Positions 9,848-33,225 of a stretch of DNA of 64,000 nt are shown here, in pieces. Both the position numbers and the translations under genes were made by a program. The notes below the pieces were generated by a model. The model saw only the letters and a list, made by a program, of their open reading frames with translations, searched no databases and was not told the DNA's origin. Origin of the DNA: Gammaproteobacteria bacterium (lineage in GTDB: Bacteria > Pseudomonadota > Gammaproteobacteria > Arenicellales > JAJDZL01); NCBI GenBank assembly GCA_022823405.1, contig JAJDXD010000096.1, forward strand, positions 5,943 through 69,942, given 5' to 3'. Position 1 is the first letter of the stretch. Every line of letters starts with the position of its first letter.

Positions 9848-10846
9848 CTAATTGACAATTTTTCGCTTCAAAGGAAATAGTTCAATTTGAGTTTTGTCGT
9901 AGATGAGTCCCCACACCCCTTGTGGCATTTTCAACATGGTAAGAATCGCAATCAAACCCAGAATAATCAGATAGTAAGATCCAAAATCTGCGAGAAAACC
10001 GCGCAAAAGAAAAAATATTATTGTCCCAACCACAGCGCCTTCCAATCGTCCAAGGCCACCAATCACAACGATGAAGATGATGTTCGCAGTCCACTCGTTA
10101 ACGTCATAGGCAGAAGTTGGAGAAATTCTTAGTTTACCCAAAAACAAAATTGCGCCTACAAGTCCGGCGACAGCGGAGGCTACCAGGAATACCTGTAATT
10201 TGTTTCGCATGACATTCACGCCGAGCCCTGAAGCTGCCACTTCATCGTCACGCATCGCTGTCAGAGCAAGTCCACGAGACGAACGTAGCCACAAGTAGGC
10301 GATCAACAGTGCGGCAATCACAATTGCTAAAGCAATCCACCAGAAAAGCGCAGCTCTTTCCGTCGAATTTCCAAAGGACTTAGCAACAGCTGTGGGAAAA
10401 CTCATCCCCGAACCCGCACCCAGATAATCAGATTGTGCTGTCAACAAGAGAAAAATTTCTGCCATCACCCACGACCCAATCGCAAAGTAAGCACCATTTA
10501 GCCGAAACAGAATGAGACCGACCGGAATTGCCAAAAGCCCAGCGACCAAACCCGCCAGCAATATGGATGGAATCAGCGGGACACCCCATAGGCCTGCTAG
10601 AGTGAATACGGCATATCCGCCAACTCCGACAAACGCCTGTTGCCCAATTGACATCACACCGGCATACCCCGCCAGCAAATTCCACATCACGGCCAAAGCA
10701 AGATAACCTGCCATTTCTGTGGCAAGTCGCATGGTGGACTTATCGCCCCAGAAGGGCAATAGAACGAGAAAAACGAGCAGAACACCGAAGCCTATCAAGA
10801 CTCCGGTATGGTATTTCTCATTCCGTTCAATTTTGTAATTTGGCAC
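9848..10846 (-). CDS. Liv-type (HAAT) ABC permease, LivM-like
   Basis: WNLLAGYAGVMSIGQQAF, GLALTAMRDDEVAASGLGV, VIGGLG. Confidence 0.9.
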   Translation of the reverse strand: MPNYKIERNEKYHTGVLIGFGVLLVFLVLLPFWGDKSTMRLATEMAGYLALAVMWNLLAGYAGVMSIGQQAFVGVGGYAVFTLAGLWGVPLIPSILLAGLVAGLLAIPVGLILFRLNGAYFAIGSWVMAEIFLLLTAQSDYLGAGSGMSFPTAVAKSFGNSTERAALFWWIALAIVIAALLIAYLWLRSSRGLALTAMRDDEVAASGLGVNVMRNKLQVFLVASAVAGLVGAILFLGKLRISPTSAYDVNEWTANIIFIVVIGGLGRLEGAVVGTIIFFLLRGFLADFGSYYLIILGLIAILTMLKMPQGVWGLIYDKTQIELFPLKRKIVN

Positions 10847-10850
10847 GTTA

Positions 10851-11711
10851 TTACTGCCCTTTGAAAATACCCGCTGGGCGTAAAACCAAAATGATGATGA
10901 ATGCGATATGTCCCGCTAGCATCTGCCATGCGGGATTTAGGTAACCGCCGAAAGCTTGAGCGACGCCTAGTGTCAGTCCACCTATCAGTGTTCCCCATAT
11001 TGACCCTAACCCCCCAATCACTACAACTTCAAACGCGATCAATAGTCTCGAAGGTCCAGACAGCGGAGTGAAACTAGTCCATGCTGCGAACAATACAGCA
11101 GATATCCCACAAACAACCATCGCAATCGCCATTGCAACCGAAAAAGTGTGTCTTGTATTTACCCCCATTACCTGAGCCACTTCCGGATCATCTGCCGTTG
11201 CCCTAAGTACCCGGCCGATGCGAGTCTTGTACGATATGAACTGCAGCCCCGCAATGATTGCGATAGCGCATACAAAAACCAATATCGAATACCACCCAAT
11301 CGAGATGTTACCGATTTGCATGCTGGCTATCTCAATGTTTCCGAAGTCGAGTTTGCGGTCATCAGCAGTGAAAATTTGCAGCAACCCATTTTGCAAAATT
11401 ATTGCGATACCGAAGGTGACGAGCAGTGGAGGCAATACGTTCGTACCAACAGTCCTGTTTAAAATTGCTCGTTGAATGCTGTAACCAAGAAGAGCCATAA
11501 AAGGCAAGACAAAAACAACACTGAGTGCCGCGTGTATGCCGAGTATCGAAGTCGCAGTAAACGCGAGAAAAGATCCTGTAACAATCAAATCACCGTGGGC
11601 AAGATTGACTACGCGCATCACACCAAACACCAATGAGAGTCCCGCTGCGAACAGAGCATAGAGACCACCGATAAGGATTCCCTGAATGATTGTGTTTACG
11701 AGTTCACTCAT
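10851..11711 (-). CDS. Liv-type ABC permease, LivH-like
   Basis: GLSLVFGVMRVVNLAHGD, GRVLRATADD, VVIGGLGS, RPAGIF. Confidence 0.9.
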   Translation of the reverse strand: MSELVNTIIQGILIGGLYALFAAGLSLVFGVMRVVNLAHGDLIVTGSFLAFTATSILGIHAALSVVFVLPFMALLGYSIQRAILNRTVGTNVLPPLLVTFGIAIILQNGLLQIFTADDRKLDFGNIEIASMQIGNISIGWYSILVFVCAIAIIAGLQFISYKTRIGRVLRATADDPEVAQVMGVNTRHTFSVAMAIAMVVCGISAVLFAAWTSFTPLSGPSRLLIAFEVVVIGGLGSIWGTLIGGLTLGVAQAFGGYLNPAWQMLAGHIAFIIILVLRPAGIFKGQ

Positions 11712-11713
11712 GG

Positions 11714-12412
11714 TTAAACTCCAAAAAAGGCATTTGCGACATCGTCGAATGCAAGTTCGTTGCTTTCACCTTCCAAATTTATTTTGCCTTCGAGAATGCA
11801 ATAGACATAGTCAGATAAATCCAACGCGCGACGAACATCTTGCTCTACGACAATCATGCTTACGCCTTTATCACGAAGTACAGGTAGCGTGCGACAGATA
11901 TCACCCACAATTGTTGGTGCAAGACCAAGGCTAAGCTCATCGAATAACAGTACCTTTGGATTGGCCATCAGTGCCCGACCAATTGCTACCATTTGCTGCT
12001 CACCACCAGAAAGGTCTGAACCACGACGCTTACGCAAGCCTTGCAATACTGGAAAGAGGTCGAACACGGTGTCTGTTGACCAGTCACCTGACCGATTGGA
12101 CTCTTGACCCATCAGCAAGTTTTCTTCTACTGAGAGACTGTGAAAAAGTCGTCTCCCCTCGGGGACGGAAGCTATTCCGAGTGCAACAACTTTTTCTGCG
12201 GCGAAACCCCCTATGGATTCGTCATCAAATGTTACACACTCGCGTTCTACTGGGACCCATCCGGCAAGGCTCCGAAGTAACGTGGTTTTCCCAGCGCCGT
12301 TCGGCCCGATTATCGCTACAATTTGACCAGCGTCAAGAGAGATGGAAACACCATAAAGCGCCTGGAAGTCGAGATAGTAAGCATCGAGGTTATGCGTTTG
12401 CAGCAAAGTCAC
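11714..12412 (-). CDS. Liv-type ABC ATPase, LivF-like
   Basis: GPNGAGKTT, LSGGEQQMVAIGRALM, DELSLGLAP. Confidence 0.92.
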   Translation of the reverse strand: MTLLQTHNLDAYYLDFQALYGVSISLDAGQIVAIIGPNGAGKTTLLRSLAGWVPVERECVTFDDESIGGFAAEKVVALGIASVPEGRRLFHSLSVEENLLMGQESNRSGDWSTDTVFDLFPVLQGLRKRRGSDLSGGEQQMVAIGRALMANPKVLLFDELSLGLAPTIVGDICRTLPVLRDKGVSMIVVEQDVRRALDLSDYVYCILEGKINLEGESNELAFDDVANAFFGV

Positions 12413-13137
12413 GCAGGCGTCCCCATATAGATCTCTCTCACTGTTGGCAGAGCAATTACTTCATTCGGTTCCCCTTCTGCAGTCAATTTCCCCTGGTCCA
12501 TTACAACCAGACGATTGACTACTGCGAGTAGAGCATGGACGATATGTTCTATCCAGACAATTGCGACTCCTGTTTTGGCAACTTCACGAATTGTCTGAAT
12601 TAGACTCTCACATTCCATATCCGTTAGGCCACCCGCTACTTCGTCGAGCAGTAGAATGCGAGGTTTCGTAGCTAGGGCTCTCGCCATTTCCAAGCGTTTG
12701 CGATCCAGAAGACGTAGCGTACTTGCCGGTGATTTTGCATGTGCGAGCAACGCTGTATTTTCCAGCACATCAAAACACTGATCATAAGCGGAGCGCTCTG
12801 GCAGGTTGCCGCCAAGTGTTGCACCTACGAGAACGTTTTCGAATACGCTCATACCCAAAAATGGTCTGGGAACCTGGAAGGCACGTGCAATACCTAAAGC
12901 GGCTCGCTGTTGCGCTGGAACTCTGGTTACATCCCTTCCTTCGAGAAAAATAGCACCTTCGGCGGGTAACTTGGTACCCATCGACAAGTCAAGCAATGTG
13001 GACTTACCGGCTCCATTGGGGCCAATGAGGCCAATTACGTCCGTTTGGTCAACTCGAAGCGAAACGTTGTTGGTAACAGTTAATGCACCATAACGGAATG
13101 TAATTCCCTTCAGTTCAAAAAGTAGTCTAGACGTCAC
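12409..13137 (-). CDS. Liv-type ABC ATPase, LivG-like
   Basis: GPNGAGKST, ARAFQVPRPF, LLLDEVAGGL, WIEH. Confidence 0.92.
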   Translation of the reverse strand: MTSRLLFELKGITFRYGALTVTNNVSLRVDQTDVIGLIGPNGAGKSTLLDLSMGTKLPAEGAIFLEGRDVTRVPAQQRAALGIARAFQVPRPFLGMSVFENVLVGATLGGNLPERSAYDQCFDVLENTALLAHAKSPASTLRLLDRKRLEMARALATKPRILLLDEVAGGLTDMECESLIQTIREVAKTGVAIVWIEHIVHALLAVVNRLVVMDQGKLTAEGEPNEVIALPTVREIYMGTPA

Positions 13138-14425
13138 GCAAATTACGTAGCTCAGCCGTTATCGGCACCTCAGGGAGAAAATCATTGGATATGATGTCAA
13201 CCTCAATGCCAAATTCACCACCAAGGCGCCACTGCCCGCCCACAAGCGGTGTGATAGACACGTTGCGACCAAATGGGCCGGTCGAGAAGTTGACCGGTCC
13301 AAGGGTCGTCTCAAGATTGGTTGCCGCCAAAGCTTCGTTAACTGATTCTCGGTCTTCCGGATCGCTCGCAGTAACCAGTGCGTTTATACCAACTTCAAAA
13401 ATTGCATGAGTCCATCCCAAAGGTGGAGTCCAGGGTTTTCCTGAAGCTTTAGTCCAAGCCGCTGCTAGCTCGGCTGAACTTTGTCCGGTCAGGGATGAAG
13501 AAAATGGAAAGTTTGGTGCCCAAACAACTTCCATAGTAAGCCCGTCAGCGAGGTCGCCCAATGTCGCTACCGCTGCTGGAAATACCAAAGCTTTTCCTAT
13601 AGTGGCTGCCTTTGGCCTGAGCCCCTGTTGGCGAGCTTGACGCCAGAAGGTATTCCAGTCCGGCGGATTAAGCACACCTGTCAGCAACTCGGTGTCTTCT
13701 GTTTTAAAGGCGCTTATATGTGCGGAAAAATTGTCGGTTAGGTTGGTAAATGTACCAGGATTTATTAATTTGTAACCCATCCCCGGTAACAGTCCTGGAG
13801 CACCCACCTCTGGATGTGACCAGGCTGCACCATCCGCATCATTCGGGAAAAGGCCACCGACGACTTTATTAGTATCGAGTCGATTCCAGGTCGAAGTGTA
13901 GGCGTTGAGTGCGTCGTTAAGTCCAAAGAAAAAGTGATAGGTGTAGTCGAAACCACTATCAGGAGTCCCGCCACGGCCGAAATACCAGGCTTCCCAAGGG
14001 GCCGCGGTCGACGCACAGGGAACTTCAGCCAGCTCACATTGATCAGCGACAGGGTTAGTAGTATCCGGTGTCGCAGTAACTAGCATAAGGTTGACTTCGT
14101 CTCGCTCAATAAGTTCAGCGGCAACGGTCGCTGCACGACTCGATGAGGATTGACTATCTTTTACGATTATTTCGATTTGGCGTTTTTTTCCGTTGATTTC
14201 AATTCCATTGGCTAGTGACTGTCTTACACCGTCCAGAATGAAATTGTCGGTTTCTCCAAAAACTGCCAACGGACCGGTTTGCGGTGAGACGTATCCAATT
14301 TTGAGTGGGTGTTTACTGGCGAATAGTGGCATTGGCAGAGCGGTAGCCGCAAGTAAAGATGTAGTTCGACCAATAAATGTTCGTCGAGACATCGTTTTAG
14401 AATCATGGTGTTTATGTGTAGACAC
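13127..14425 (-). CDS. Tat-exported ABC substrate-binding protein (Liv/PBP1 family)
   Basis: Twin-arginine SRRTFI; KIGYVSPQTGPLAVFGE; GTG at 14425 preceded by AGAGGA; start uncertain. Confidence 0.85.
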   Translation of the reverse strand: MSTHKHHDSKTMSRRTFIGRTTSLLAATALPMPLFASKHPLKIGYVSPQTGPLAVFGETDNFILDGVRQSLANGIEINGKKRQIEIIVKDSQSSSSRAATVAAELIERDEVNLMLVTATPDTTNPVADQCELAEVPCASTAAPWEAWYFGRGGTPDSGFDYTYHFFFGLNDALNAYTSTWNRLDTNKVVGGLFPNDADGAAWSHPEVGAPGLLPGMGYKLINPGTFTNLTDNFSAHISAFKTEDTELLTGVLNPPDWNTFWRQARQQGLRPKAATIGKALVFPAAVATLGDLADGLTMEVVWAPNFPFSSSLTGQSSAELAAAWTKASGKPWTPPLGWTHAIFEVGINALVTASDPEDRESVNEALAATNLETTLGPVNFSTGPFGRNVSITPLVGGQWRLGGEFGIEVDIISNDFLPEVPITAELRNLRDV

Positions 14426-14521
14426 AGTTATTTCCTCTCTTAGGTTAGTTTCGTTCAATCACCTGAATTGGCTAGGCAAAGTGGTGCAGGCATCTCGTCA
14501 AATTAAGTATTATCATTACAA

Positions 14522-16063
14522 TCAGCTGTCATCTAGAGTGATCAGATTGTCCCAAGGTGATTCGTTACTCCAGTTAATGCAAACACTCTGTCTTCGCATG
14601 TAACCCTTCCAGGCATCCGAACCTGCGGTTCGGCCGCCGCCGGTTTCCTTTTCCCCACCAAATGCGGCACCGACATCAGCGCCAGTCGTGCCCATATTAA
14701 CTTTGGCGATTCCACAGTCAGTGCCTGACGCAGACAAAAACTTTTCGATATTGTTCAAATTCTGACTTTGAATTCCCGATGCCAGCCCTTGGGCGACACC
14801 GTTGTGAATGTCGATTGCCTCGTCCAAGTCTTCATAGTCAATTACGAAGACCAGTGGTGCAAATGTTTCTCGCTGGATACACGGCCAATCAGCCTGACAA
14901 TCAGAAATGATGGTTGCTTCAACATAGTAGCCAGGACGATCTATTCGTTTCCCACCGTACTCAATCTTTCCTCCCTTTTCGACAGCTTCGGAAACGGCAG
15001 TCTCAAAATGTCCTACCGCAGCAGGGTCGATAAGAGGTCCAACCATCGCAGTTTCTTCCCGTGGATCACCGATGCTGATTTGCTCGAAAGAGCTGACCAA
15101 GTTTGCGATTAGTTCATCTCTAACGCTTTTGTGCGCGATGATCCGTCGAGTGCTGGTGCAACGCTGACCTGTCGTACCTACTACACCGAATGTAATTGAA
15201 CGTGCGGCAAGCTTCAGGTCTGCGGTTTCATCTACGATGCAGCCATTGTTTCCAGAACACTCCAATAGACATCGTCGCCCAAGAGTTTTGGCAACTGTAC
15301 TGGCAACATGCTGTCCCACTGCTGTAGACCCAGTGAATGAAATTAGAGCAACTCGTTCGTCTTTGACCATTTCCTCGGCAACTTCATTGTCTTCTGGTAT
15401 GAAGAGCGAGAAAACTCCGTTGTGTCCGGTTTCCTCCATGGCGCGATTAGTCAGATGCTGTAAAGCTATAGCAGTCAAGGGCACTTTGGGACTGGGTTTC
15501 CAAATTACGGTGTTGCCACCAATTGCTGACAAAAATCCATTTTGTGCCCACACAGCGGCTGGAAAGTTGTACGCGGTAATCAAGCCAGCAACACCGAGCG
15601 GTAACCATTGTTCGTACATTCGGTGTTTCTCGCGTTGTGACTGTTGGGTATGGCCGTATAACATACGTGACTGGCCAGTTGCCAGACGGCCCATGTCAAT
15701 TGCTTCCTTGACCTCGCCCTTGCCTTCCATTACTGATTTTCCAGTATCAATCGCTACAATCTTGCCGAGTGCATCGTGGTTCTCGGCCATAAGATCAGCT
15801 ATTCGTGAAATCAGTTCGCCGCGGGCCGGTGCCGGCACCATGCGCCAACGTTTTTGGGCTTCCACGGCACAATTGATGATGCGGTCGTAATCATTACGTG
15901 TTGCAGATGAAATTCCGACCGTTTTCTCACCGTTGGCAGGAAACACATGAGAAAAAACTCCATTTTCGTCAACTGGGAACCATCCATCTGCACTGCAAAA
16001 TGCTCCAGAATTCACAGTTTCTATGCCAAGCTGATCGAAGACCTCACTGATTTCAAATTTCAT
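14522..16063 (-). CDS. Aldehyde dehydrogenase, ALDH7/antiquitin-like
   Basis: GEVKEAID, ITAYNFP, FTGST, LLECSGNN (catalytic Glu), GQRCT (catalytic Cys), AFGGEKETGGGR, GSDAWKGYMRR. Confidence 0.9.
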   Translation of the reverse strand: MKFEISEVFDQLGIETVNSGAFCSADGWFPVDENGVFSHVFPANGEKTVGISSATRNDYDRIINCAVEAQKRWRMVPAPARGELISRIADLMAENHDALGKIVAIDTGKSVMEGKGEVKEAIDMGRLATGQSRMLYGHTQQSQREKHRMYEQWLPLGVAGLITAYNFPAAVWAQNGFLSAIGGNTVIWKPSPKVPLTAIALQHLTNRAMEETGHNGVFSLFIPEDNEVAEEMVKDERVALISFTGSTAVGQHVASTVAKTLGRRCLLECSGNNGCIVDETADLKLAARSITFGVVGTTGQRCTSTRRIIAHKSVRDELIANLVSSFEQISIGDPREETAMVGPLIDPAAVGHFETAVSEAVEKGGKIEYGGKRIDRPGYYVEATIISDCQADWPCIQRETFAPLVFVIDYEDLDEAIDIHNGVAQGLASGIQSQNLNNIEKFLSASGTDCGIAKVNMGTTGADVGAAFGGEKETGGGRTAGSDAWKGYMRRQSVCINWSNESPWDNLITLDDS

Positions 16064-16107
16064 AAGATTGTTCCTGTCGTATTCACGAAAGTAGTCATAT
16101 TGAATAA

Positions 16108-16842
16108 CTAGTTCTTGGGCCTGCCACCAGCAACCCATTTCTGAAACTCGTCTCGGCTATTTTCAGTGGAGGGGAACAGGCCAAAAATAGAACGACCCTG
16201 AGAGATTTGAACTTCAACAAACTCTTCATAGTCGGTAGTCGCATAGGCCGAATCTGCAACATCGTCAACCAAATGGGCAGGAATGACTACGACACCCTCC
16301 CTGTCTCCGACCACAGTATCATTCGGATACACAGCGACACCCGCGCAGCCTATTGGAACTTCCAAGTCTACTGCATGCAGCGCGATTACTGTTGAAGGGG
16401 GGGCTGATTGCCTCTGATACCCGGGAAGTCCAGCTGCCACGATGGCTGGAGTATCACGACATCCGCCATCCGTGACAAACCCGGCTATCCCTCTTTTTTT
16501 GAGGCGAGTTGCCATAATGTCGCCGATCGATGATGCTGCTACGCAATTTCCGGTATCCATTACCAGTACCGATCCCTCTGGAATTTCCTCGATCGCACGT
16601 CGATGGACATTACTGTCAAGCTCATAAATTTCCAAGTTGTCCAAGTCTTCACGTGCTGGAATAAATCGCAGTGTGTAGGCTTTTCCCAGCATTTGAGGTT
16701 GTTGAGGGTCTAAAGGGTTGAGGCCCATCAGATACCTATTTCTAAATCCCAGGGCCAGTAACGCATTGGCGATTGTTGATGTGCTGCATGCGAGCAATTT
16801 GTCATTGCTGGACAATTGGTCAGCAGTACTAGAATTCTGCAA
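16108..16842 (-). CDS. RraA/HMG-CHA aldolase family protein
   Basis: GKAYTLRFIPAREDL, IGDIM, VTDGGCRD, VGDREGVVVIP; TTG start. Confidence 0.85.
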   Translation of the reverse strand: MQNSSTADQLSSNDKLLACSTSTIANALLALGFRNRYLMGLNPLDPQQPQMLGKAYTLRFIPAREDLDNLEIYELDSNVHRRAIEEIPEGSVLVMDTGNCVAASSIGDIMATRLKKRGIAGFVTDGGCRDTPAIVAAGLPGYQRQSAPPSTVIALHAVDLEVPIGCAGVAVYPNDTVVGDREGVVVIPAHLVDDVADSAYATTDYEEFVEVQISQGRSIFGLFPSTENSRDEFQKWVAGGRPKN

Positions 16843-16867: not shown

Positions 16868-16895
16868 GTTTAACATTTTATATGAAATGTTAAAC
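16868..16895. promoter_or_regulatory. 28-bp near-perfect palindrome; putative operator, core ATTTTATATGAAAT
   Basis: GTTTAACATTTTATATGAAATGTTAAAC, 26 bp upstream of the RraA-ALDH-Liv operon. Confidence 0.7.
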
Positions 16896-24938: not shown

Positions 24939-24955
24939 CCTGATAGTTCCCAAAG

Positions 24956-25828
24956 TCAAGACAATTGATTGGCAACACGTGCTAGACAGCGTCTTACCAA
25001 AACGCCGGTAATATGCTTTCGGTATTGAGCCGATGCTCGGTGATCCGAAAAAGGCTCAATTTCGCCTTTGGCTGCTGTGGCCGCCCGCTTAATATCCTCC
25101 GCATTCAACTCTGAATTCTCAAGAACCGCTTCAGCTTCGCAGCAGCGAAACGGGACTTCACCGATTCCGCCCCCGACAAAAATTCGAGCACCTGACTGTG
25201 AACCACCGCTCAATGAAAGTCTGACACCGACGCTGACAATTGAAAGATCGTTGGCGGTAGTCTCCATTTTTTCGAATGACGATGCCGACTGTTCTGACGG
25301 TTGAGGTACCTTGATCTCTGTAATGATTTCGCCAGGAATCAAATTAGTTTCAAATAGAGATACGAACAACTCATCAATTGGAAATTCCCTAGTGCCGTCA
25401 GGACCAGTTGCACAAACCATCGCGTCCAATGCCAAAAAGGCAATCGGCATATCAAGGTAAGGACACGACGCTGCCACGCCTCCCCCAATAGTTGCTGCGT
25501 TCTTTACCTGTCGAGGCGGGTATGCAATCGCTTCGCGTAATGCTCCCAGCAACGAAATATTCTGAATCTCGGCAGAGGCCTCAAGACTGGCAAATGAAGT
25601 GCTCGCACCGAGTCTAATGACATTTTCGTCGAACGTCATATGGTTCAGATTTAGACGCGACAAATCAATGAGCTGTTCAACATCGGTAACGAGGCCTCTT
25701 GCTACCAAACCGTGAATAAACGTGCCACCACCGATAACCATCGCAGAATCCTGACAGGCCTGCAGTATCGCAACTGCCTCTTCGACGCTATTGGGCTGAC
25801 TAAACCCCTGTAGTGTTGTAAGTGCCAA
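24956..25828 (-). CDS. Mo-hydroxylase FAD-binding medium subunit
   Basis: IGGGT, QVKNAATIGG, DHRASAQYR. Confidence 0.9.
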   Translation of the reverse strand: MALTTLQGFSQPNSVEEAVAILQACQDSAMVIGGGTFIHGLVARGLVTDVEQLIDLSRLNLNHMTFDENVIRLGASTSFASLEASAEIQNISLLGALREAIAYPPRQVKNAATIGGGVAASCPYLDMPIAFLALDAMVCATGPDGTREFPIDELFVSLFETNLIPGEIITEIKVPQPSEQSASSFEKMETTANDLSIVSVGVRLSLSGGSQSGARIFVGGGIGEVPFRCCEAEAVLENSELNAEDIKRAATAAKGEIEPFSDHRASAQYRKHITGVLVRRCLARVANQLS

Positions 25829-26070: not shown

Positions 26071-26880
26071 GTGTCAGAACTAACTCTTTATGATTTTGCC
26101 GAGTCAGTCTGTTGCCAGAAAGTGCGTCTAGTCATAGCTGAAAAGGGTCTCTCGGTGCGGGAAGTGCCAGTGCCGCTGGATGAGGGTGCTCAGTTTAAGC
26201 CCGAATTTCTCAAACTGAATCCAAAGGCTATTGTTCCGGTCGCTACACACAATGATCGAGTGATAACCGAGTCGACGGTAATCAACGAATATATAGAGGA
26301 AGCGTTTGAAGGACCAAATCTACTACCCGAAAATGCCTATCACCGGGCGATGGCCCGTAACTGGTCGCTTCGAGTGGATTTAGGGTTACATAGCCCCCAC
26401 ACCACTGTGGTTAGTTTTGTCGTGGCTCTGCGTTATGCATTTATGGACAAGCTGGACACACCGGAAAAGATAGCAGCGCATTTGCAAAATGTCATGGATC
26501 CGGTAAGTCGCGAAATGCAGCGCCAAGGATTTGAGATGGCTTACGAGGCACCGGCTTTTCGTGACGCTATCTTGGCATTTGATGATTTGCTCGAGCAAAT
26601 GAATGCGGCACTGACACAGTCCAAGTGGTTGGTTGGTGATCACGTGTCGTTGGCAGATTTCAATCTTGCACCTTACATTCATCGACTCGACACCCTAGGT
26701 TTGTCAGGTATGTGGTCCCATCGAAGTGATGTAGCTCGCTGGTACGAGGCATTACAGCAGCGTCAAAGTTGGGACCAGGCGATTCAGAAACCCCATGTGG
26801 CAATGTGGCTTGATCTAATGGCAATGGGTGGTAAAGAAGGTGCCCCAATTGTGGCGAGAATGCTCGAAACGTCATCCTGA
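26071..26880 (+). CDS. Glutathione S-transferase family protein
   Basis: [40 protein letters not shown]. Confidence 0.92.
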
Positions 26881-27027
26881 GGCAACAAACATCTTCTATC
26901 AACGCAATTTTGTTCAGCAAATGCGAACAGAATCGAAAGTCATTTCAATCCAATTTGACTCCACTTGAGAAGAGGATTGAGGTGTTGTATGCGAGTCCCG
27001 ATTCAATAGCAAAAAGGTGATGCAATT

Positions 27028-27402
27028 ATGGACATATCTGAACTCTTAAATTTTGTCGGAAGAGTGCTGGTTGCGGCGTACTTTCTCTGGGCTGTCTGGT
27101 TCAATTTCGCGAACCGTGGATTTCATCTATCCGAGTTTGAACGAATCGGCGTAGGTGGTGGGAAAATCCTTTTCTTGGTTGGGCAGGTTTTCGCACTGGG
27201 TGGCAGTGTAATGTTTCTGATTGATGCGGTCGCGTTATACGGTGCCGCTTTACTGATCATCTTCACATTGGTGGCTGACATGCTGTTTCACAGATTCTGG
27301 ACTTATCCGGACCCAGAGCATTCAACTATTCACAAGTTCTTTTTGTATGAGCATGTAGCTCTGATCGGCGGAATTCTAGGACTTGCCAGTGCACACCTTT
27401 AA
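27028..27402 (+). CDS. DoxX-family membrane protein
   Basis: GRVLV..F, four hydrophobic segments, FHRFW, EHVALIGG. Confidence 0.8.
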   Translation: MDISELLNFVGRVLVAAYFLWAVWFNFANRGFHLSEFERIGVGGGKILFLVGQVFALGGSVMFLIDAVALYGAALLIIFTLVADMLFHRFWTYPDPEHSTIHKFFLYEHVALIGGILGLASAHL

Positions 27403-27564
27403 CGTCTTTCTAAGTTAAGGGTGCTATTTCCGCCTCGCGGTGCATGTGCAGTTGAGGTGAGGAATTGTGGCTGCCGATTGTACGTTAACTTTTTTACCCT
27501 GCTATTGCTCAAAAATGTAATTTGTGTATAATTTCTCAAAAAATATCACATAAAATTTCTGCAA

Positions 27565-27891
27565 ATGACAGCATACTTTATCGCACTAGGAACCTTAAAG
27601 GATCCAGAAAAAATGGAGCGTTATGTAGAACTATCTGGGCCAATCATGGCTAGGCATGGTGGACAATGGATTTCCACTGGAGAGGTTAAGAAGATTCTCA
27701 CTGGGTCACACAAACATGATCGAGTGGCGATATTCAGCTTCCCAAGTATTGAACATGTTGAGGCTTGGTATAACGACCCGGACTACAAATCGCTTTGGGA
27801 GTTCCGGAGCGAATGTGGTGATTTTGATTTCTTGGCCGTGGAAGAATTTCCTTGGGTCGCAGACGCAAAAAAAACACTTGAAGAGGAGTAA
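27565..27891 (+). CDS. DUF1330-family protein
   Basis: MTAYFI..DPEK...Y...HGG, FPS.E...AWY.DPDY. Confidence 0.85.
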   Translation: MTAYFIALGTLKDPEKMERYVELSGPIMARHGGQWISTGEVKKILTGSHKHDRVAIFSFPSIEHVEAWYNDPDYKSLWEFRSECGDFDFLAVEEFPWVADAKKTLEEE

Positions 27892-27895
27892 TTAT

Positions 27896-28981
27896 ATGAA
27901 AACAATGAGATTCTGTGCCAAACTGGTAATCGCAGGAGCGATCACCCTGACTGTGGGCGTGGGTTCGACGGTTGCTGACTGGAGCTTCGACGTTTTAGCC
28001 CGGGACGACCTTCGTAAAACCGCAATGGAACCTCTCAATGGTTCAGTGAAAACATATACAGCACTAAGCCAATCCGAGGTGACAAAAAAATGGAGCCTGT
28101 GCATGCTGGTTCCACATACGACCAATGAGATTTTACGTGCTTACATTTGGGGTACAGTTGATGAAGCTAAACGTCTAGGCGCAAAGCTGACAACATTCGA
28201 CGCTGGAGGTTATGACAAGCTATCCACGCAACTGTCCCAATTTGACGATTGTGTCACTCTAGGTGCCGACGCAATTCTTCTTATGGCGATCTCACCTACC
28301 GCCTACGGACAAAAAATTGCTGCAGCTAGAGAACGGGGCGTTAAGGTTATTGACCTGAATATCGGTGTTGATGCCGAGGTCGATGGACGTGTGGTTGTCA
28401 CCTTCAAGTTTGTTGGCGACGTTATTGGTAAAGCATTGGCGGAACGACACCCCAGTGACAGTGTATCGGTCATCGTGATGCCCGGACCTGCCGGTGTAGC
28501 ATGGTCAGAAGATATGGTTATTGGCCTTAATGACGCAATTGTTGGTTCTGGCGTAAGTGTCGAAAAGGTAGTTTACGGTGCGCCGGGCAAAATTGACCAG
28601 CAGCCATTGGTTGAGGATGTTTTGACTGCGTATGCCGATCTGGACTACATCGCGGGAATGGGAAGCTCCGTTGAAGCGGCAGTAAACATCCTTCGGGAAC
28701 AAGGTCGTGTTGGTGAGGTGAAACTCTATGGAACTTGGTTGACACCGACCGTTATCCAGGGCTTGAAGGACAAAATTATTGAAGGCGTCGTCCTTGAGAA
28801 CTCAGTGATCGTCAACCGTTTGGCTGTCGACCTTGCTATTCGAGTTCTCGAAGGCAAAGCCGATCCGACCTTGCTTGATGTGGTTCCTGTCGTGTCACTG
28901 GTTGATGGTGTGTCTGTAGATGACGCGCCGGCTGCCAACTTTGCACCAGCGGACTGGCAAACCGAAATGAACGTGGACTAG
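27896..28981 (+). CDS. TorT-like periplasmic ABC substrate-binding protein
   Basis: Signal peptide after GAGGAG RBS; KKWSLCMLVPH, EAKRLG...DAGGY, DCV..GADAI, PGPAG..W: TorT-like pattern. Confidence 0.8.
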   Translation: MKTMRFCAKLVIAGAITLTVGVGSTVADWSFDVLARDDLRKTAMEPLNGSVKTYTALSQSEVTKKWSLCMLVPHTTNEILRAYIWGTVDEAKRLGAKLTTFDAGGYDKLSTQLSQFDDCVTLGADAILLMAISPTAYGQKIAAARERGVKVIDLNIGVDAEVDGRVVVTFKFVGDVIGKALAERHPSDSVSVIVMPGPAGVAWSEDMVIGLNDAIVGSGVSVEKVVYGAPGKIDQQPLVEDVLTAYADLDYIAGMGSSVEAAVNILREQGRVGEVKLYGTWLTPTVIQGLKDKIIEGVVLENSVIVNRLAVDLAIRVLEGKADPTLLDVVPVVSLVDGVSVDDAPAANFAPADWQTEMNVD

Positions 28982-29000
28982 TTCTGCTTAGGAAAATTTT

Positions 29001-29028
29001 AGGTGGCAGGTGAACTGCCACCTTTTTT
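29001..29028 (+). terminator. Intrinsic terminator or stabilising hairpin after the binding-protein gene
   Basis: AGGTGGCAG-GTGAA-CTGCCACCT followed by a T run. Confidence 0.75.
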
Positions 29029-29055
29029 CCAAAAACATAACATCTGGAAACTCTC

Positions 29056-29649
29056 ATGCCAAGGCTATCTCCTCTCGAAAGAAACAAACTCACTGAGTTT
29101 GAATCAGTATTTAAAGAAATGGAGGACGCTCTGGGTTACGTTCCGAATAGCTTCTTCACTATGGGACGTGTTCCAGAGATTATGCACGCAGTCAGCGGCT
29201 TAATGGACCATCTTTGGTACCCCGACAGGGTTTCGGAGCCGGTTCGTCGCCTTGTCACTTATGCATATAGCTGGTTCGCCGGTTCTCCATATAGCGCTGC
29301 CCATTGCGCCTGCGGTGCGGAGGAGTTAGGGTTATCACTTGAAAAAATCCAAGCAATTGAGGATTACGAAACTTCATCTGTCTATTCAGAATCCGAAAGA
29401 TGTCTACTGCGCCTCTGCAGACATGCAGCTTACATGCCGGCACGTGTTGAGGATGAAGATATAGAACAGTTGCGTAATCACTTTTCCGAATCTGAGATTC
29501 TGTATGTCATCGGATTGATCTCCTGCGTCGCATTTCTGAATAAATGGAACGAAATCATTCAGACTGCTCTTGAGCCCATCCCAGAAGAATGGGCAACCCG
29601 AAATTTGCACGGATTTAAGTCAAGTTTCAACAAGTCTAGTAACGTTTGA
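29056..29649 (+). CDS. AhpD/carboxymuconolactone decarboxylase family protein lacking the CxxC motif
   Basis: LGYVPNSF..M..VP, GSPYSAAH, FSESEI, FLNKWN. Confidence 0.78.
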   Translation: MPRLSPLERNKLTEFESVFKEMEDALGYVPNSFFTMGRVPEIMHAVSGLMDHLWYPDRVSEPVRRLVTYAYSWFAGSPYSAAHCACGAEELGLSLEKIQAIEDYETSSVYSESERCLLRLCRHAAYMPARVEDEDIEQLRNHFSESEILYVIGLISCVAFLNKWNEIIQTALEPIPEEWATRNLHGFKSSFNKSSNV

Positions 29650-31166
29650 TCAGGGAAGCTGCACAACTTCTGCTTCAGGTTCGGGCAATATCCAAACGAT
29701 ACGGTGCTGTTCAGGCATTGTCTAGTATGGATTTTGATCTGGCTGCAGGTGAAGTTCATGTGTTGTTCGGGGAAAACGGCGCGGGCAAGTCCACACTGAT
29801 AAACGTCATCTGCGGGGCAGTTCCACCGGACGAAGGCGAAGTGTCGTTGCGAGGTAACCCAATTAAGCTCCGCGATGTGCACGATGCGCGAAGCAGGGGC
29901 ATTTCAGCGATGTTTCAGGAATTTAGCCTTGCTCCACATCTATCCGTAGAAGAAAACATTTACCTTGGAGATGAGCCAAAGGCGGGTTTGTGGTTGAAGC
30001 GAGGCGTACGCCGTCACGGTGCCAAGGAAGCATTGGAACGATTTGGATTTGATCTTAACCCTTCGACGATGGTGGGAATGCTGTCCCGTGCGCAGCAGCA
30101 AATGGTGGAAATGGCCAAGGCGTTACGCACAGGACCCGATGTCCTGATCCTGGATGAACCGACTGCGTCGTTGTCAGAAAAGGAAACCGAAACTCTGTTT
30201 AGCCTTATCCGTGATCTCAGAAAACAAGGTGTTGGGATCATATATATCACCCACAGAATAAAGGAAATCAAGGAAATCGGCGATCGCGTCACTGTAATGC
30301 GCGATGGCAAACCGGTCAAGACTGTCGATGCCGGCTCGACTGACCACAAGGAGTTTGTCGAGTTGATGATTGGTCGCACGTTCGACAATTTCTACCCACA
30401 ATTCACCTGCGAGCCCACTGAGGAGCGACTTACTGTTGAGAACCTCTCGACGGTATCGGGTCATGTTCGATCGGCTACGATAAAAGTGCTTGCCGGGGAG
30501 ATCGTAGGTCTAGCGGGTTTGGTCGGTTGCGGAAAATCGGAGATCGGACGTGCGGTATTCGGCCTTGAGCCAATCCTCTCGGGCAGTGTTAAGCACGAGG
30601 GAACAGAAATTAAACGACCAACACCGCGCCGAATGCTTGACCGGGGAGTGGTATACATAACCTCTGATCGTCACAACGAGGGGTTAATGCTGTTGCGGTC
30701 TACTAAGGAAAATATCAGTCTGTCAGCACTTTCGCTATCAGAATATTCAAGGGCAAGTTGGATAAATCGTGGTGCGGAGCAGCAGATGGCACAAAGAGTC
30801 GCCAAGCGAATGAAGGTGACACCTTTGGATCTTTCCAAGCCTGTGTCTGCGTATTCCGGGGGAAATCAACAAAAAATCCTAATTACCAAGGCACTCGCTC
30901 GTGATACTCGCGTGTTCATTTTTGACGAACCCACTGTCGGTATTGACGTTTCGGCAAGGGTTGAGGTGTACAAATTCATGAAGGATCTCATCACTGCTGG
31001 TGAGTCGGTTCTCATGATAAGTTCCGACCTACCCGAAATCATCAATATGAGCCATCGCGTTTACGTCGTGAAAGATGGCGAAGTAGTGGATCATATGGAA
31101 AAATCGGAAATTTCCGAGCCAAGACTATTGAACGCCTTTTTTAGTGGCACCAAGGAAGTTGCGTGA
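29646..31166 (+). CDS. Sugar-type (CUT2) ABC ATPase, two fused domains
   Basis: GENGAGKSTL, LDEPTASL, YSGGNQQK, DEPTVGIDV. Confidence 0.93.
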   Translation: MIREAAQLLLQVRAISKRYGAVQALSSMDFDLAAGEVHVLFGENGAGKSTLINVICGAVPPDEGEVSLRGNPIKLRDVHDARSRGISAMFQEFSLAPHLSVEENIYLGDEPKAGLWLKRGVRRHGAKEALERFGFDLNPSTMVGMLSRAQQQMVEMAKALRTGPDVLILDEPTASLSEKETETLFSLIRDLRKQGVGIIYITHRIKEIKEIGDRVTVMRDGKPVKTVDAGSTDHKEFVELMIGRTFDNFYPQFTCEPTEERLTVENLSTVSGHVRSATIKVLAGEIVGLAGLVGCGKSEIGRAVFGLEPILSGSVKHEGTEIKRPTPRRMLDRGVVYITSDRHNEGLMLLRSTKENISLSALSLSEYSRASWINRGAEQQMAQRVAKRMKVTPLDLSKPVSAYSGGNQQKILITKALARDTRVFIFDEPTVGIDVSARVEVYKFMKDLITAGESVLMISSDLPEIINMSHRVYVVKDGEVVDHMEKSEISEPRLLNAFFSGTKEVA

Positions 31167-32179
31167 AAATGAATCGTAGAGATGGTGACAAAAGATCTGC
31201 CGACGCAACTTCGTGGCTTCGTCAAGCATTTATTCATCTGGGTATTCTGCCTTTATTGCTGGTTGCTGCGATTCTTTTATTCGCAATTCAGGAGGAGCGC
31301 TTCTATTCGAGCCTGAATATCTTCAATGTAGTGAGGCAAACAACCTTCCTGTTGATTGTCGCATTGGGACAGATGATCGTGATTCTGACCAAAGGGCTCG
31401 ATATGTCGATGGGTGCTGTGGTTGGGTTTTCGGGTGTCGTCGGTGCGTTGGCAATGAAGGCAGTTCTCGGAGTCGCTCCAGACGCATTATTGCTAGGTGG
31501 CATTGTGGCCGTGCTTGCGGGCATTTCGGCAGGCGCATTAGCCGGAGCTTTTAATGGAATCGGTGTCTCGTATCTGAATGTACCTCCCTTTATGATGACA
31601 TTGGGTACCTGGACCAGTCTGGTTGGGGTGTCTTTACTACTGACGAAAGGTATGCCGCTAACAGGAGTTCCCGATGAATTTATGCGTGCACTGGGATATG
31701 GTCGCATTTTTGGACTCGCACCTCCGGTGCTCGTGACTATTATTCTTGTCGTACTGGTGTATGCGCTTCTCAACCGGACTACTATCGGGCGTTACTTCTA
31801 CGCGATTGGCTCAAACCTCCGAGCCGCAAAGCTTTCCGGGATCAATGCCAGTGGCCAAATGTTTTTTGCCTATGTATTGTCCGGAACATTTGCAGGTGTG
31901 GCTGGTGTCTTGTTCATCGCCAGGACAGGGTCGGCCGAAGCATTGAACGGTAGTGCTTATACTCTGCAGGCGATTGCAGCATGTGTTATCGGTGGTGTAT
32001 CTCTATTCGGTGGCATCGGCAAAGTGCGTGACGTTTTGCTCGGTGCTTTCTTCATCACAATTTTGACTAACGGTATGAATCTCATTCGGGTGGAGTCATA
32101 TATTCAGTCAATTGTGTTGGGATTGGTTTTGATTTTGTCGCTCGTCGCAGATCAATTTCGCATGAAACTTTTGAAATGA
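31163..32179 (+). CDS. Sugar-type ABC permease (RbsC-like)
   Basis: GLDMSMG, VPPFMMTLG, IGSNLRAAKLSGI, IAACVIGGVSLFGG. Confidence 0.92.
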   Translation: MKMNRRDGDKRSADATSWLRQAFIHLGILPLLLVAAILLFAIQEERFYSSLNIFNVVRQTTFLLIVALGQMIVILTKGLDMSMGAVVGFSGVVGALAMKAVLGVAPDALLLGGIVAVLAGISAGALAGAFNGIGVSYLNVPPFMMTLGTWTSLVGVSLLLTKGMPLTGVPDEFMRALGYGRIFGLAPPVLVTIILVVLVYALLNRTTIGRYFYAIGSNLRAAKLSGINASGQMFFAYVLSGTFAGVAGVLFIARTGSAEALNGSAYTLQAIAACVIGGVSLFGGIGKVRDVLLGAFFITILTNGMNLIRVESYIQSIVLGLVLILSLVADQFRMKLLK

Positions 32180-32189
32180 GGATGCAATA

Positions 32190-32573
32190 GTGAATCAAGT
32201 AGAAGAAAACAAGAGGGTTGTGGTTGCTTTTCTTGATACCGTTTTCAATCGTCACCAAGTGGACGAAGGGATAGACAACTACATGGGCTCAACATATACC
32301 CAGCACAATCCGGGAGTTGAGAACGGTGTGGAAGCATTTCGTGCCTTTTTTCACGCGTTCTTCGCGAATATGCCGGAATCGACTTTCGACATCAAGCGAG
32401 TTTTCTGTGAGGGCAATTACGTCACTGTTCACGCACATTGGAAGGAAAATGCGGATGACCGTGGTCAAGCTGTTATGGACATTTTCAGGGTAGAAAAAGG
32501 CAAAATTGTGGAACATTGGGACGTTATGCAGCCGATCCCAGAAAAGCTTGCGCACAACAATACGATGTTCTAA
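32190..32573 (+). CDS. SnoaL/NTF2-like protein
   Basis: NKRVV..F, YTQHNP, MDIFRVEKGKIVEHWD. Confidence 0.88.
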   Translation: MNQVEENKRVVVAFLDTVFNRHQVDEGIDNYMGSTYTQHNPGVENGVEAFRAFFHAFFANMPESTFDIKRVFCEGNYVTVHAHWKENADDRGQAVMDIFRVEKGKIVEHWDVMQPIPEKLAHNNTMF

Positions 32574-32607
32574 TCATCTTCACACCCTTCACAGAAAGAG
32601 AGAAGTG

Positions 32608-33225
32608 ATGCAGTCTCCCAATATTGAAAACACTCTGCGCGCGCTCAACGAAAGTGCCCTAGATATCATTTTTCGTGAAGCACGTACTCGAAATGGCTGG
32701 AAGGATCAACCGGTGCCAGATCAGCTGATTCGGGCAGTTTACGCGGACGCAATTCTAGGTCCGACTTCGGCGAATTGCCTTCCTATGCGAATTGCCTTTG
32801 TTTCGTCACCAAATGCCAAGCAACGCCTTGCACCAGCGTTAGAAGAAGGGAACCTAGCAAAAACAATGAAAGCTCCGGTTGTGGCCATTTTCGCATTTGA
32901 TCTACTCTTTTTCGAGCATTTAGAGAAAACCTTTCCTCATGCACCTGACGCACGAACTTGGTTTGAAGGTAATGATGCACTTATATTCGAAACAGCATTT
33001 CGTAATGCTACACTGCAGGCAGCATACTTCATGCTGGCTGCCCGTGCACATGGCCTCGATTGTGGCCCTATGTCTGGATTTGACCAGGAAAAAGTTAACG
33101 CAGAATTTTTTCCGGACGGCCGATATCAGTCTAATTTCATCTGCAGTATTGGGTATGGCACTGACGAAAACATATTTCCGCGAAGCCCACGACTTGAATT
33201 TGAAGACAGCTGCAGCATTCTTTAG
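32608..33225 (+). CDS. RutE-like nitroreductase-fold (malonic semialdehyde reductase-like) protein
   Basis: FREART, GPTSANCLPMR, RNATLQAAY, GLDCGPMSGFD, PRSPRL. Confidence 0.85.
   Translation: MQSPNIENTLRALNESALDIIFREARTRNGWKDQPVPDQLIRAVYADAILGPTSANCLPMRIAFVSSPNAKQRLAPALEEGNLAKTMKAPVVAIFAFDLLFFEHLEKTFPHAPDARTWFEGNDALIFETAFRNATLQAAYFMLAARAHGLDCGPMSGFDQEKVNAEFFPDGRYQSNFICSIGYGTDENIFPRSPRLEFEDSCSIL

Follow-up and report, generated by a model that had tools for sequence, protein, structure and literature searches.

Several described catabolic routes share part of their logic with the locus considered here, a gene block of about 25 kb within a 64,000-nucleotide stretch (the window) of contig JAJDXD010000096.1 from a gammaproteobacterium of the Arenicellales (assembly GCA_022823405.1). 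A first-pass annotation described the block, from its sequence, as a self-contained island of about 25 genes for the breakdown of a substituted aromatic or heteroaromatic compound. An open reading frame (ORF) listing, with Pfam and NCBIfam scans of the window proteins, forms the basis of the gene calls used below. These scans recover every gene family listed at that time in its place, and correct the count to 24 ORFs. Among them is a gene for a two-domain extradiol dioxygenase of the VOC type.

In the lower pathway of 2,4-dinitrotoluene (DNT) degradation (DntD, DntG, DntE) and in the meta route for orcinol and resorcinol, a VOC extradiol dioxygenase adjoins a hydrolase of the FAH family. Malonate semialdehyde is an expected product of both lower routes. 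The same pairing is found in the island, and a product of the malonate-semialdehyde type would fit its RutE-like reductase. However, the island lacks the CoA-acylating methylmalonate-semialdehyde dehydrogenase, and adds conserved RraA-like, cupin and RidA-like genes, importers and a molybdenum (Mo) enzyme. The parallel with DNT drawn in the first pass thus stands for the pairing of dioxygenase and FAH hydrolase, but not for the aldehyde dehydrogenase (ALDH), which is ALDH7-like. In the routes for 2-aminophenol and nitrobenzene (amn, nbz) and for 3-hydroxyanthranilate, ring cleavage is followed by a semialdehyde dehydrogenase, a RidA/YjgF deaminase, an FAH-family enzyme and an aldolase, an order that the island could reproduce. 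The differences lie in the enzymes themselves, since the island has a VOC dioxygenase, an ALDH of another subfamily, an RraA-like aldolase and a RidA-like protein that lacks the usual arginine.

Pyridine derivatives are degraded by the kpi pathway (4-hydroxypyridine, Arthrobacter sp. IN13) and the pyd pathway (3-hydroxy-4-pyridone, Rhizobium TAL1145). According to their published descriptions, a pyridone is hydroxylated to a diol whose ring is then opened by extradiol cleavage, and KpiD is proposed to catalyse a last step of the FAH family; the island might share all of these steps, with pyruvate, formate and ammonia as end products. In the same sources, KpiC is of the amidohydrolase type and PydA of the LigB type, whereas the VOC dioxygenase of the island is unrelated to both; a PydA-like 3-hydroxy-4-pyridone dioxygenase was therefore rejected. 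The island has no alpha/beta-hydrolase deformylase, while ALDH7, RraA, cupin and Mo enzymes do not figure in the kpi and pyd routes as described. An MnpC-like aminohydroquinone dioxygenase was also rejected, because MnpC is LinE-like and the mnp cluster carries a glutathione S-transferase (GST), an amidase and a maleylacetate reductase. Nor do the candidate genes for paracetamol and 4-aminophenol degradation provide a match, having been reported as not clustered.

The Rut pathway of pyrimidine degradation (RutC, RutE) has in common with the island a RutE-type reductase, which scores above its model cut-off, and a RidA-family protein with a weak match to RutC. However, RutA, RutB, RutD, RutF and RutG are missing from the island, where the ring would be opened by a dioxygenase instead. 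The island probably represents a meta-cleavage pathway composed of an unusual, conserved set of enzymes, which shares its logic with the DNT/orcinol, amn/nbz, hpa, kpi/pyd and Rut routes and is a member of none of them. The first pass had not recognised the combination as a described pathway, and searches of open-access full texts (supplements not covered) found no characterised pathway onto which the set maps one to one.

Conserved linkage and presence or absence of the block

It is likely that the island constitutes one coherent extradiol catabolic unit, and the first line of evidence is the linkage of its genes in other bacteria. When 185,579 species genomes were scanned with a profile, at least 598 relatives of the dioxygenase came up, of which the best 80 loci (top identity 44%) were kept, and neighbours of the dioxygenase in these loci were detected by tblastn with the island proteins. 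In 18 of the 80, distant as they are, the dioxygenase adjoins other core genes, namely RraA-like (15 of the 18; 53-60% identity to the window protein), stand-alone cupin (16 of 18; 60-69%) and RidA-like (15 of 18; 48-58%). An FAH gene is found in 11 of these core-linked loci (33-41% identity), and the dioxygenase has an adjoining FAH-family gene in 52 of all 80. The hosts include Variovorax, Pseudomonas schmalbachii, Aquabacterium, Lautropia, Rhodococcus, Arthrobacter and Streptomyces. As judged by sequence comparison, the core gene set is kept across Proteobacteria and Actinobacteria. A protein search with the dioxygenase found 60 relatives, nearly all metagenomic, 21 of them at 50% identity or more (50-72%). 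A separate metagenome scan returned only six loci, at 28-34% identity, and thus no close relatives by that scan. Equal 'longest contig' lengths in two pairs of proteins (17,948 for P0014 and P0068, 131,447 for P0018 and P0071) hint that the members of each pair may share a contig.

Another counterpart was reached by a plasmid search with the cupin, and lies on the alphaproteobacterial plasmid p1 of Gemmobacter fulvus con5 (NZ_CP076362, ~144-164 kb). Within about 20 kb, 17 of the 24 island ORFs are matched, and for 14 the identity is 46-66%. The genes for the TorT-like binding protein (58%), CMD protein (54%), ATPase (60%), permease (66%), SnoaL-like protein (63%) and DoxX-like protein (59%, annotated there as 'hypothetical protein') occur in the same order as in the window. 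Also shared are RraA (54%), GntR (32%), CoxG (26%), RidA (47%), cupin and YciI (46%), the VOC dioxygenase (36%) and RutE (52%), and the FAH gene (57%) is divergent from a Mo enzyme there; RutE, dioxygenase and FAH are thus all found together. The lower matches, at 26-47%, are those of the dioxygenase, GntR, CoxG and the Mo subunits. The Gemmobacter cluster differs in lacking ALDH7, the Liv-type importer and GST, in having two Mo enzymes and two CMD genes, and in encoding cupin and YciI as separate adjacent genes; the operator pattern described below has no match there.

A quick maximum-likelihood tree of 82 dioxygenases contains a clade of 21 rows (support 98), which comprises 19 core-linked dioxygenases, that of Gemmobacter included, the dioxygenase of the window and one further locus (L016). 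The homologues are thus not scattered: linkage is conserved on the Gemmobacter plasmid, in 18 of the 80 loci and within one clade, in keeping with the first-pass view of a single catabolic island. Taken together, the core linkage, the Gemmobacter cluster and a shared operator support at least 22 of the 24 genes beyond their position, the exceptions being the GST gene and, largely, the Mo enzyme of the window.

The second line of evidence is the behaviour of the block in related genomes. Among 31 genomes of the genus, the dioxygenase gene was found in two, that of the window (G000) and G013; the latter is collinear with window positions 1064-39099 at 97% nucleotide identity and contains the island. 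In three others (G015, G029 and G030), which are island-free, the suf/Rrf2 flank is followed after 41-118 bp by the TauE flank, and these flanks are 87-93% identical to those of the window. Because the three genomes join window position ~9143-9220 directly to 34182, the insert spans ~9150/9220 to 34181, with its left junction between 9143 and 9220, its right junction at 34181/34182 and a length of about 25 kb. Between these genomes the block comes and goes as a single piece, as a presence/absence polymorphism, and the interval from ~9150/9220 to 34181 is probably one horizontally acquired catabolic island. The acquired unit is slightly wider than the interval 9848-33225 noted earlier, since it takes in a 0.6-kb coding-free left end and an insertion sequence (IS) remnant of the IS5 family on the right.

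Both borders had been remarked upon in the first pass. The gap on the left is indeed gene-free, as the ORFs of 8912-9714 contain no Pfam family and the interval yields no tRNA and no Rfam match; comparison of the 698-bp gap with plasmids gave no match. The IS5 scar on the right is borne out by tblastn, which detects decayed N-terminal fragments of an IS5-family transposase at 33455-33983 (- strand), inside the island. The fragment at 33720-33983 (-) is 37-53% identical to plasmid genes annotated as IS5/IS4-family transposases (211 records, best listed E 6e-12), while a Pfam scan of the fragments, being blind to them, gave no match. Diverged copies (75-82% identity) occur elsewhere in the same genome. 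Scans of the island for tRNAs, Rfam families and, with Pfam, integrase genes found none, and among the repeats listed there are no flanking direct repeats of 18 nt or more. Of the usual marks of a genomic island, presence or absence at a fixed site is seen, and the sole trace of mobility is the decayed IS5-family fragment.

Just to the right of TauE, a Pot-type ABC importer operon (35180-39387; two permeases, a TOBE-domain ATPase and an SBP_bac_8 binding protein) forms a second indel that adjoins the island. It is absent in G015 and G029, complete in G013 and represented in G030 by its proximal part (to ~36657). Further along the window, at 47656-51090, a gene of the PFK family (423 aa), possibly dependent on pyrophosphate (PPi), adjoins a membrane H+-pyrophosphatase gene, a pair that may point to a PPi-based energy economy.

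Transcription units, operator-like sites and importers

The island is organised in six transcription units. The first runs leftward from the gene for an RraA-like class II aldolase or decarboxylase (16108-16842, -) through that for the ALDH7-like enzyme (14522-16138, -) into a Liv/Urt-type ABC importer (9848-14458, -), which consists of a Peripla_BP_6 protein (13127-14458), two ATPases (12409-13137 and 11714-12412) and two permeases (10851-11711 and 9848-10846), and ends at 9848. The second is the gntR gene alone (17378-18028, +), which encodes a GntR/FCD protein, the sole regulator in the island. The third (18354-19575, +) contains a cupin_7 domain (residues ~50-175) fused to a YciI/YCII domain (~186-273) in one ORF (18354-19175), followed by a RidA-family gene (19177-19575). 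The fourth comprises the dioxygenase gene (19612-20544, -) and, divergent from it, a gene for an FAH-family beta-diketone (acylpyruvate-type) hydrolase (20727-21575, +). The fifth (25828-21688, -) encodes the FAD subunit (24956-25828), 2Fe-2S subunit (24465-24959) and large subunit (22131-24461) of the Mo enzyme and CoxG (21688-22128).

The sixth unit runs rightward (26071-33225, +). It begins with genes for GST (26071-26880) and a small membrane protein (27028-27402) that is weakly DoxX-like, below the Pfam cut-off, and continues into a CUT2-type importer (27896-32179) with a TorT-like binding protein (27896-28981), a CMD/AhpD-like protein (29056-29649), a fused ATPase (29646-31166) and a permease (31163-32179). 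A SnoaL/NTF2-like protein (32190-32573) and a RutE-type malonic semialdehyde reductase (32608-33225) complete it. Some true starts lie inside the listed ORFs, at 20544 for the dioxygenase, 27896 for the TorT-like binding protein, ~32608 for RutE, 19177 for RidA and ~18455 or 18492 for the cupin.

A repeat search revealed two near-identical 20-bp palindromes, one upstream of the RraA operon and one upstream of the cupin gene, and a related 14-bp palindrome was seen upstream of gntR and in the intergenic region between dioxygenase and FAH. The operator pattern ATTTYATRTRAAAT, scanned on both strands of the window with at most one mismatch, gave nine strand-matches at five sites, against ~0.32 expected, and none of 100 shuffles reached nine. 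All five sites fall in promoter regions of the island: 33 bp upstream of the RraA operon start (16875-16888), 54 bp upstream of gntR (17311-17324), just upstream of or overlapping the cupin start (18444-18457), in the divergent dioxygenase/FAH promoter region (20666-20679) and, with one mismatch, upstream of the TorT-like operon (27543-27556). The last of these was not used in building the pattern. Neither the Mo operon nor the GST gene is preceded by an operator-like site. The distribution of sites suggests that the island genes are probably co-regulated via the shared palindrome, and the GntR/FCD regulator would be the candidate to bind it. Homologues of this regulator lie beside the dioxygenase in L010 (40% identity) and on the Gemmobacter plasmid (32%). 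A promoter scan found 17 candidates, not above the shuffle mean of 24.

The two importers of the island belong to different families. The Liv/Urt-type system scores best on NCBIfam models of urea transporters (UrtB 143 bits, UrtE 202 bits), in all cases below cut-off, and in the 80 loci Liv-type ATPases adjoin the dioxygenase only in Variovorax (L017 and L018). In those loci, an ORF upstream of the Liv genes was considered as a binding protein and rejected, as it is an FAD monooxygenase. The binding protein of the window (13127-14458, -) has a twin-arginine-like leader, S-R-R-T-F-I-G, which suggests export by the twin-arginine translocation (Tat) system, an unusual route for the family.

The TorT-like binding protein scores 202 bits on NF008185, barely above the cut-off of 200, and 145 bits on TIGR02955 against a cut-off of 310. 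A role as sensor of trimethylamine N-oxide does not fit, since the gene sits in an ABC importer operon and the island has no sensor kinase. The gene recurs in five of the 18 core-linked loci, in four of them with ATPase and permease beside it and in the fifth (L012) with the ATPase only. A strong hairpin with a T-run (29001-29023; nine pairs, six of them G-C) follows the binding-protein gene inside the importer operon, and could raise the ratio of binding protein to transporter. In general, the importers linked to the core vary between NCS1 (cytosine/hydroxymethylpyrimidine-like), NMT1/THI5-like, Liv/Urt-like and TorT-like CUT2 types. TorT-like CUT2 importers with 38-41% identity are also carried by a megaplasmid of Ruegeria sp. 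TM1040, by pLDW-10 of A. crystallopoietes and by pA of R. pyridinivorans (L140, L139 and L141). Such plasmid importers adjoin genes for 5-oxoprolinase-like proteins, biotin carboxylase, gamma-aminobutyrate transaminase and succinate-semialdehyde dehydrogenase, or else for an FAD oxidoreductase and an amidohydrolase, which hints that this subfamily of binding proteins serves the uptake of lactams or N-heterocycles rather than sugars.

Enzymes of the island

In the dioxygenase, Pfam recognises a Glyoxalase domain over residues 164-285, and there are weak full-length matches, below cut-off, to the catechol 2,3-dioxygenase and HpaD models. Residues H155, H207/H208, H222, H254, Y263 and E273 are invariant in 24 aligned sequences; by their spacing, and by the pattern of BphC and other type I extradiol enzymes, they presumably supply the His/His/Glu metal set and the His/His/Tyr catalytic set. 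With two VOC modules and a 2-His-1-carboxylate pattern, the predicted protein qualifies as a type I (VOC) extradiol dioxygenase. Solved structures include no close homologue (best E 1.6e-7), and the label 'THT-oxygenase-like' given in the first pass rests only on the UniRef name of one homologue, P0029, which is 39% identical.

The FAH protein scores 367 bits on the 2,4-didehydro-3-deoxy-L-rhamnonate hydrolase model (cut-off 500) and matches PDB 8gsr with E 1.9e-81. By similarity, it would be a hydrolase of 2,4-diketo acids. It cannot be assigned as L-2,4-diketo-3-deoxyrhamnonate hydrolase (LRA6), because it scores below cut-off and the island has no genes of the LRA1-5 types. The FAH proteins of the window and of Gemmobacter (393 bits) score as one subtype, against 169-194 bits for the FAHs of most relatives. 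The RraA-like protein scores 268 bits on NF006093 (cut-off 208), a subfamily model without an assigned function; an FAH-RraA fusion model is matched too, over its C-terminal half. It is not an HMG/CHA aldolase (LigK/GalC) by its scores on TIGR02798 (71 bits, cut-off 304) and NF006731 (80.5 bits, cut-off 179).

The cupin has invariant residues H102, H104, E114 and H140 (His-x-His...Glu...His), and is 57-66% identical to the stand-alone cupins of eight related loci. Its predicted model has a mean pLDDT of 62.8 overall and is confident over residues 60-160; the structures nearest to it in fold are acetylacetone dioxygenase, KdgF and 2,4'-dihydroxyacetophenone dioxygenase. If the model is a fair guide, the cupin is closest to small metalloenzymes whose substrates are beta-diketones, enols and alpha-hydroxyketones; extradiol cleavage of a triol would give products of this kind. 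The RidA-family protein matches Pfam Ribonuc_L-PSP (72 bits), and lies below the TIGR00004 and RutC cut-offs (RutC 43 bits against 169). A smaller module of cupin (47-49% to that of the window), Ldh2-family oxidoreductase, RidA and FAH is found on plasmids of A. tumefaciens (L137, pQ15_94_2, 13959-16752) and M. loti (L138, pML2037, 13947-16743). Its neighbours there are genes for Liv-type importers, for regulators of the GntR or LysR family, for subunits of Mo enzymes and for Rieske oxygenases, and the module may represent a related lower pathway in which an imine reductase takes part.

RutE is the sole island enzyme above an NCBIfam equivalog cut-off (NF003768, 286.4 bits against 152), and is thus predicted to be a malonic semialdehyde reductase. 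Its gene lies beside the dioxygenase in four of the 80 loci (L058, L059, L081 and L086; 47-52% identity), in three of them together with FAH. Malonate semialdehyde fits as a product because RutE recurs with both the dioxygenase and FAH.

The ALDH scores 603.5 bits on the piperideine-6-carboxylate dehydrogenase model NF050084 (cut-off 730), matches PDB 10fm with E 2.9e-155 and solved ALDH7A1 chains with E ~1e-121, and keeps the active-site stretch Q-R-C-T as in the aligned ALDH7-type chains. This stretch suggests a substrate with a distal carboxylate. Of 19 related clusters, eight contain an ALDH7-like gene (60-67% identity) and another eight a distinct Mo enzyme, while none has both; the three clusters with neither include two that are cut by contig ends. 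The distinct Mo enzymes, several of them with CoxG, are 61-76% identical among seven genome loci and 51-56% identical to MoL1 of Gemmobacter. Since the two never co-occur, the simplest reading is that they do the same job, namely aldehyde oxidation.

The Mo enzyme of the window is a different one. Mo hydroxylases of the xanthine dehydrogenase (XDH) family consist of a large subunit that holds the molybdenum cofactor, a 2Fe-2S subunit and an FAD subunit, and all three are encoded in the island. The nearest solved chain is the alpha subunit of 4-hydroxybenzoyl-CoA reductase (E 6e-112), and the large subunit scores 599 bits on XdhA (cut-off 780) and 558 bits on 4-hydroxybenzoyl-CoA reductase alpha (cut-off 995). 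The window-type enzyme has more than 120 homologues at 60-83% identity; their contexts in other genomes were considered as a clue to its role and proved uninformative. In two of these genomes (L148 in G158 and L149 in G070), homologues at 59-60% identity adjoin genes for a DMSO-reductase-family molybdoenzyme and an electron-transfer flavoprotein-ubiquinone oxidoreductase, together with a 4Fe-4S protein in L148 and an NrfD-like membrane protein in L149, which may serve as an electron outlet to the quinone pool.

In most relatives, ring hydroxylation would fall to an oxygenase. An HpaB-2-like oxygenase gene is upstream of the dioxygenase in 12 of the 18 core-linked loci, with a flavin reductase detected in eight of these 12; an FAD monooxygenase takes its place in Variovorax (L017) and a Rieske oxygenase in L008. 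Neither the window island nor the Gemmobacter cluster contains an HpaB-like, FAD or Rieske oxygenase. Two HpaB-family genes elsewhere in the window genome (contig C49, 98760-99554, and contig C119, 1593-2384) were rejected as the missing hydroxylase, since they share only 21-28% identity with the oxygenases that related clusters carry. Because both the window and Gemmobacter lack an oxygenase and have an extra XDH-family Mo enzyme beside the dioxygenase/FAH pair, hydroxylation is assigned to the Mo enzyme, and there is a modest case that it performs ring hydroxylation in the island.

A putative route, its substrate and competing explanations

The gene content is compatible with a route of the following kind. 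The substrate would enter by the TorT-like CUT2 importer, the Liv/Urt-type importer or both, and the GntR/FCD regulator would then let go of the palindromic operators. The Mo enzyme, with CoxG, would add a hydroxyl group derived from water, as a flavin or Rieske oxygenase might do in relatives. The VOC dioxygenase would cleave the resulting diol or triol beside its vicinal oxygens, to give a polyketo or enol acid semialdehyde; the ring cleaved might be of the hydroxyquinol type, as the first pass supposed. The aldehyde would be oxidised by the ALDH7-like enzyme, or by the different Mo enzyme in other clusters. The cupin-YciI and RidA-like proteins could tautomerise, trim or de-aminate an enol or enamine, after which the FAH hydrolase and the RraA-like aldolase or decarboxylase would yield pyruvate and a C3 fragment. 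Malonate semialdehyde would finally be converted to 3-hydroxypropionate by RutE.

The nature of the substrate is less certain than the coherence of the unit. The ring to be opened is most likely a small, hydroxylated aromatic one, and it probably contains nitrogen. A small polar N-heterocycle is favoured because of the types of importer, the occurrence of TorT-like importers near lactam- or amide-hydrolase genes, and the replacement of oxygenases by a Mo hydroxylase. An N-heterocycle of the pyridone or hydroxypyridine type is accordingly proposed only tentatively, at somewhat short of even chances, and any single named compound would be an improbable guess.

A number of observations weigh against the proposed unit or its route. 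Firstly, ALDH, FAH, the Mo subunits and the aldolase all fall below NCBIfam equivalog cut-offs. Secondly, the RidA-like protein has the fold of the family but is not a canonical member: the position that is taken to correspond to Arg105 of Salmonella RidA, which binds the substrate carboxylate, holds C, S or A in nine of nine aligned members. Lacking the arginine, this protein is no more than a candidate deaminase, and the general statement of the first pass that RidA proteins deaminate enamines cannot be carried over to it. Thirdly, the operator pattern was built from four of its own five sites, and no match to it was found in the Gemmobacter cluster. Fourthly, the window dioxygenase is on a long branch (1.37) in the quick tree. 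Fifthly, it is position that places GST in the unit; GSTs of 26-33% identity occur near the dioxygenase in nine of the 80 loci, and none was found in the Gemmobacter cluster. Sixthly, the large subunit of the window Mo enzyme shares no more than 27-33% identity with the Mo enzymes found in related clusters (33% with the second one of Gemmobacter), and its homologues at 59-62%, present in three of 400 sampled genomes of the same class, lie in unrelated contexts, although one also has an adjacent FAH gene. The first pass had included the Mo enzyme in the pathway; its subunits and CoxG are present as described, but their link to the pathway is the weakest part of the scheme. Finally, the ALDH7 gene, together with OCD/mu-crystallin (L010) and Ldh2-type genes of relatives, hints at open-chain or cyclic imino-acid intermediates, such as would arise from aminophenol-type rings.

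This last point leads to an explanation that keeps the island and its logic, and changes the ring. The substrate might be carbocyclic, with an amino group or side chain (aminophenol, aminocatechol or tyrosine/DOPA-type), so that cleavage would give a product like 2-aminomuconate semialdehyde, which ALDH7 would oxidise and the RidA-like protein de-aminate before FAH and the RraA-like enzyme finish the route. The Q-R-C-T stretch is that of alpha-aminoadipate semialdehyde dehydrogenases, of whose substrate 2-aminomuconate semialdehyde would be an unsaturated analogue. The HpaB-2-like oxygenases of relatives (643-668 bits against a cut-off of 885) belong to a group that typically acts on 4-substituted phenols, imine-reductase families occur in variant modules, and the amn/nbz route, for which He and Spain (1998) reportedly provide the precedent of a deaminase, has a parallel set of dioxygenase, ALDH, RidA, FAH and aldolase. 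However, a Mo hydroxylase cannot hydroxylate such a benzene ring, and Mo enzymes are what the window and Gemmobacter have in place of an oxygenase. The linked transporters (NCS1, NMT1/THI5-like, Urt-like and TorT-like) are not of amino-acid or aniline types, the known aminophenol dioxygenases are LigB-type enzymes or cupins and not VOC proteins, and the arginine-less RidA is again unhelpful. On balance, an amino-substituted carbocycle is unlikely, though it deserves to be taken seriously.

The pathway might also have been characterised under other names, in which case it would be an ordinary one. Its parts do resemble the DNT/orcinol lower pathway, hpa, amn, kpi/pyd and Rut. Nevertheless, the open-access literature, within the coverage given above, yields no paper with this gene set. 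Annotated copies of the related clusters (three clusters) carry only generic names of the PGAP kind, and the Atlas names for the cupin are generic as well. No solved structure is close to the dioxygenase, and the known 3,4-dihydroxypyridine dioxygenases (LigB-type and amidohydrolase-type) and MnpC (LinE-like) are of other families. A pathway already on record is thus quite improbable. If the island were matched to a known compound and pathway, it would be an ordinary accessory catabolic island.

Still less probable, to the point of being very doubtful, is a mosaic in which operons with unrelated roles (import of amino acids or urea, import of sugars, a dehydrogenase of the purine type and assorted detoxification) merely travel together. 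The occurrence of the window-type Mo enzyme without other island genes, the lack of conserved linkage for GST, the restriction of Liv-type ATPases beside the dioxygenase to two Variovorax loci, and generic family names compatible with many functions would all suit it. Against a mosaic, the five operator-like sites are distributed over four transcription units, divergent or separate, and take in both importers, the 17 matched ORFs of 24 are clustered on an alphaproteobacterial plasmid, the core is kept across two phyla, and the island is gained or lost whole. A non-phosphorylative route for a deoxy-sugar of the rhamnose or fucose type is hardly credible: although the FAH is nearest to L-2,4-diketo-3-deoxyrhamnonate hydrolase, the importer ATPase and permease resemble sugar systems and the Mo subunits score on glyceraldehyde dehydrogenase models, Pfam finds no sugar dehydrogenase, lactonase, sugar-acid dehydratase or 4-dehydrogenase in the island, the FAH is below its cut-off (367 against 500), the dioxygenase keeps the full extradiol residue set, and relatives carry aromatic hydroxylases.

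Returning to the N-heterocycle, it is tempting to extend it to all the related loci. In that case, the island, the Gemmobacter cluster and at least 18 loci of Proteobacteria and Actinobacteria would encode a widespread, undescribed pathway for pyridone, hydroxypyridine or pyrimidinone rings, and the VOC dioxygenase would be a third family that cleaves pyridine diols or triols, beside the LigB-type PydA and the amidohydrolase-type KpiC. The hydroxylase (Mo, HpaB, FAD or Rieske) and the aldehyde step (ALDH7 or Mo) would be interchangeable, and the Dke1/KdgF-like cupin and the arginine-less RidA would perform new steps. This extended proposal is speculative and, taken in all its parts, doubtful.

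Should it hold, a function would be found for a conserved set of about six genes (VOC dioxygenase, cupin, RraA-like, arginine-less RidA, ALDH7 or Mo enzyme, and FAH) whose hosts range from Streptomyces to Gammaproteobacteria of the sea, and a new route would be added by which small aromatic rings with nitrogen are turned over in soil and water. The set is also a clear case of modular pathway evolution, since one core is combined with hydroxylases of four kinds, as many kinds of importer and two aldehyde oxidisers.

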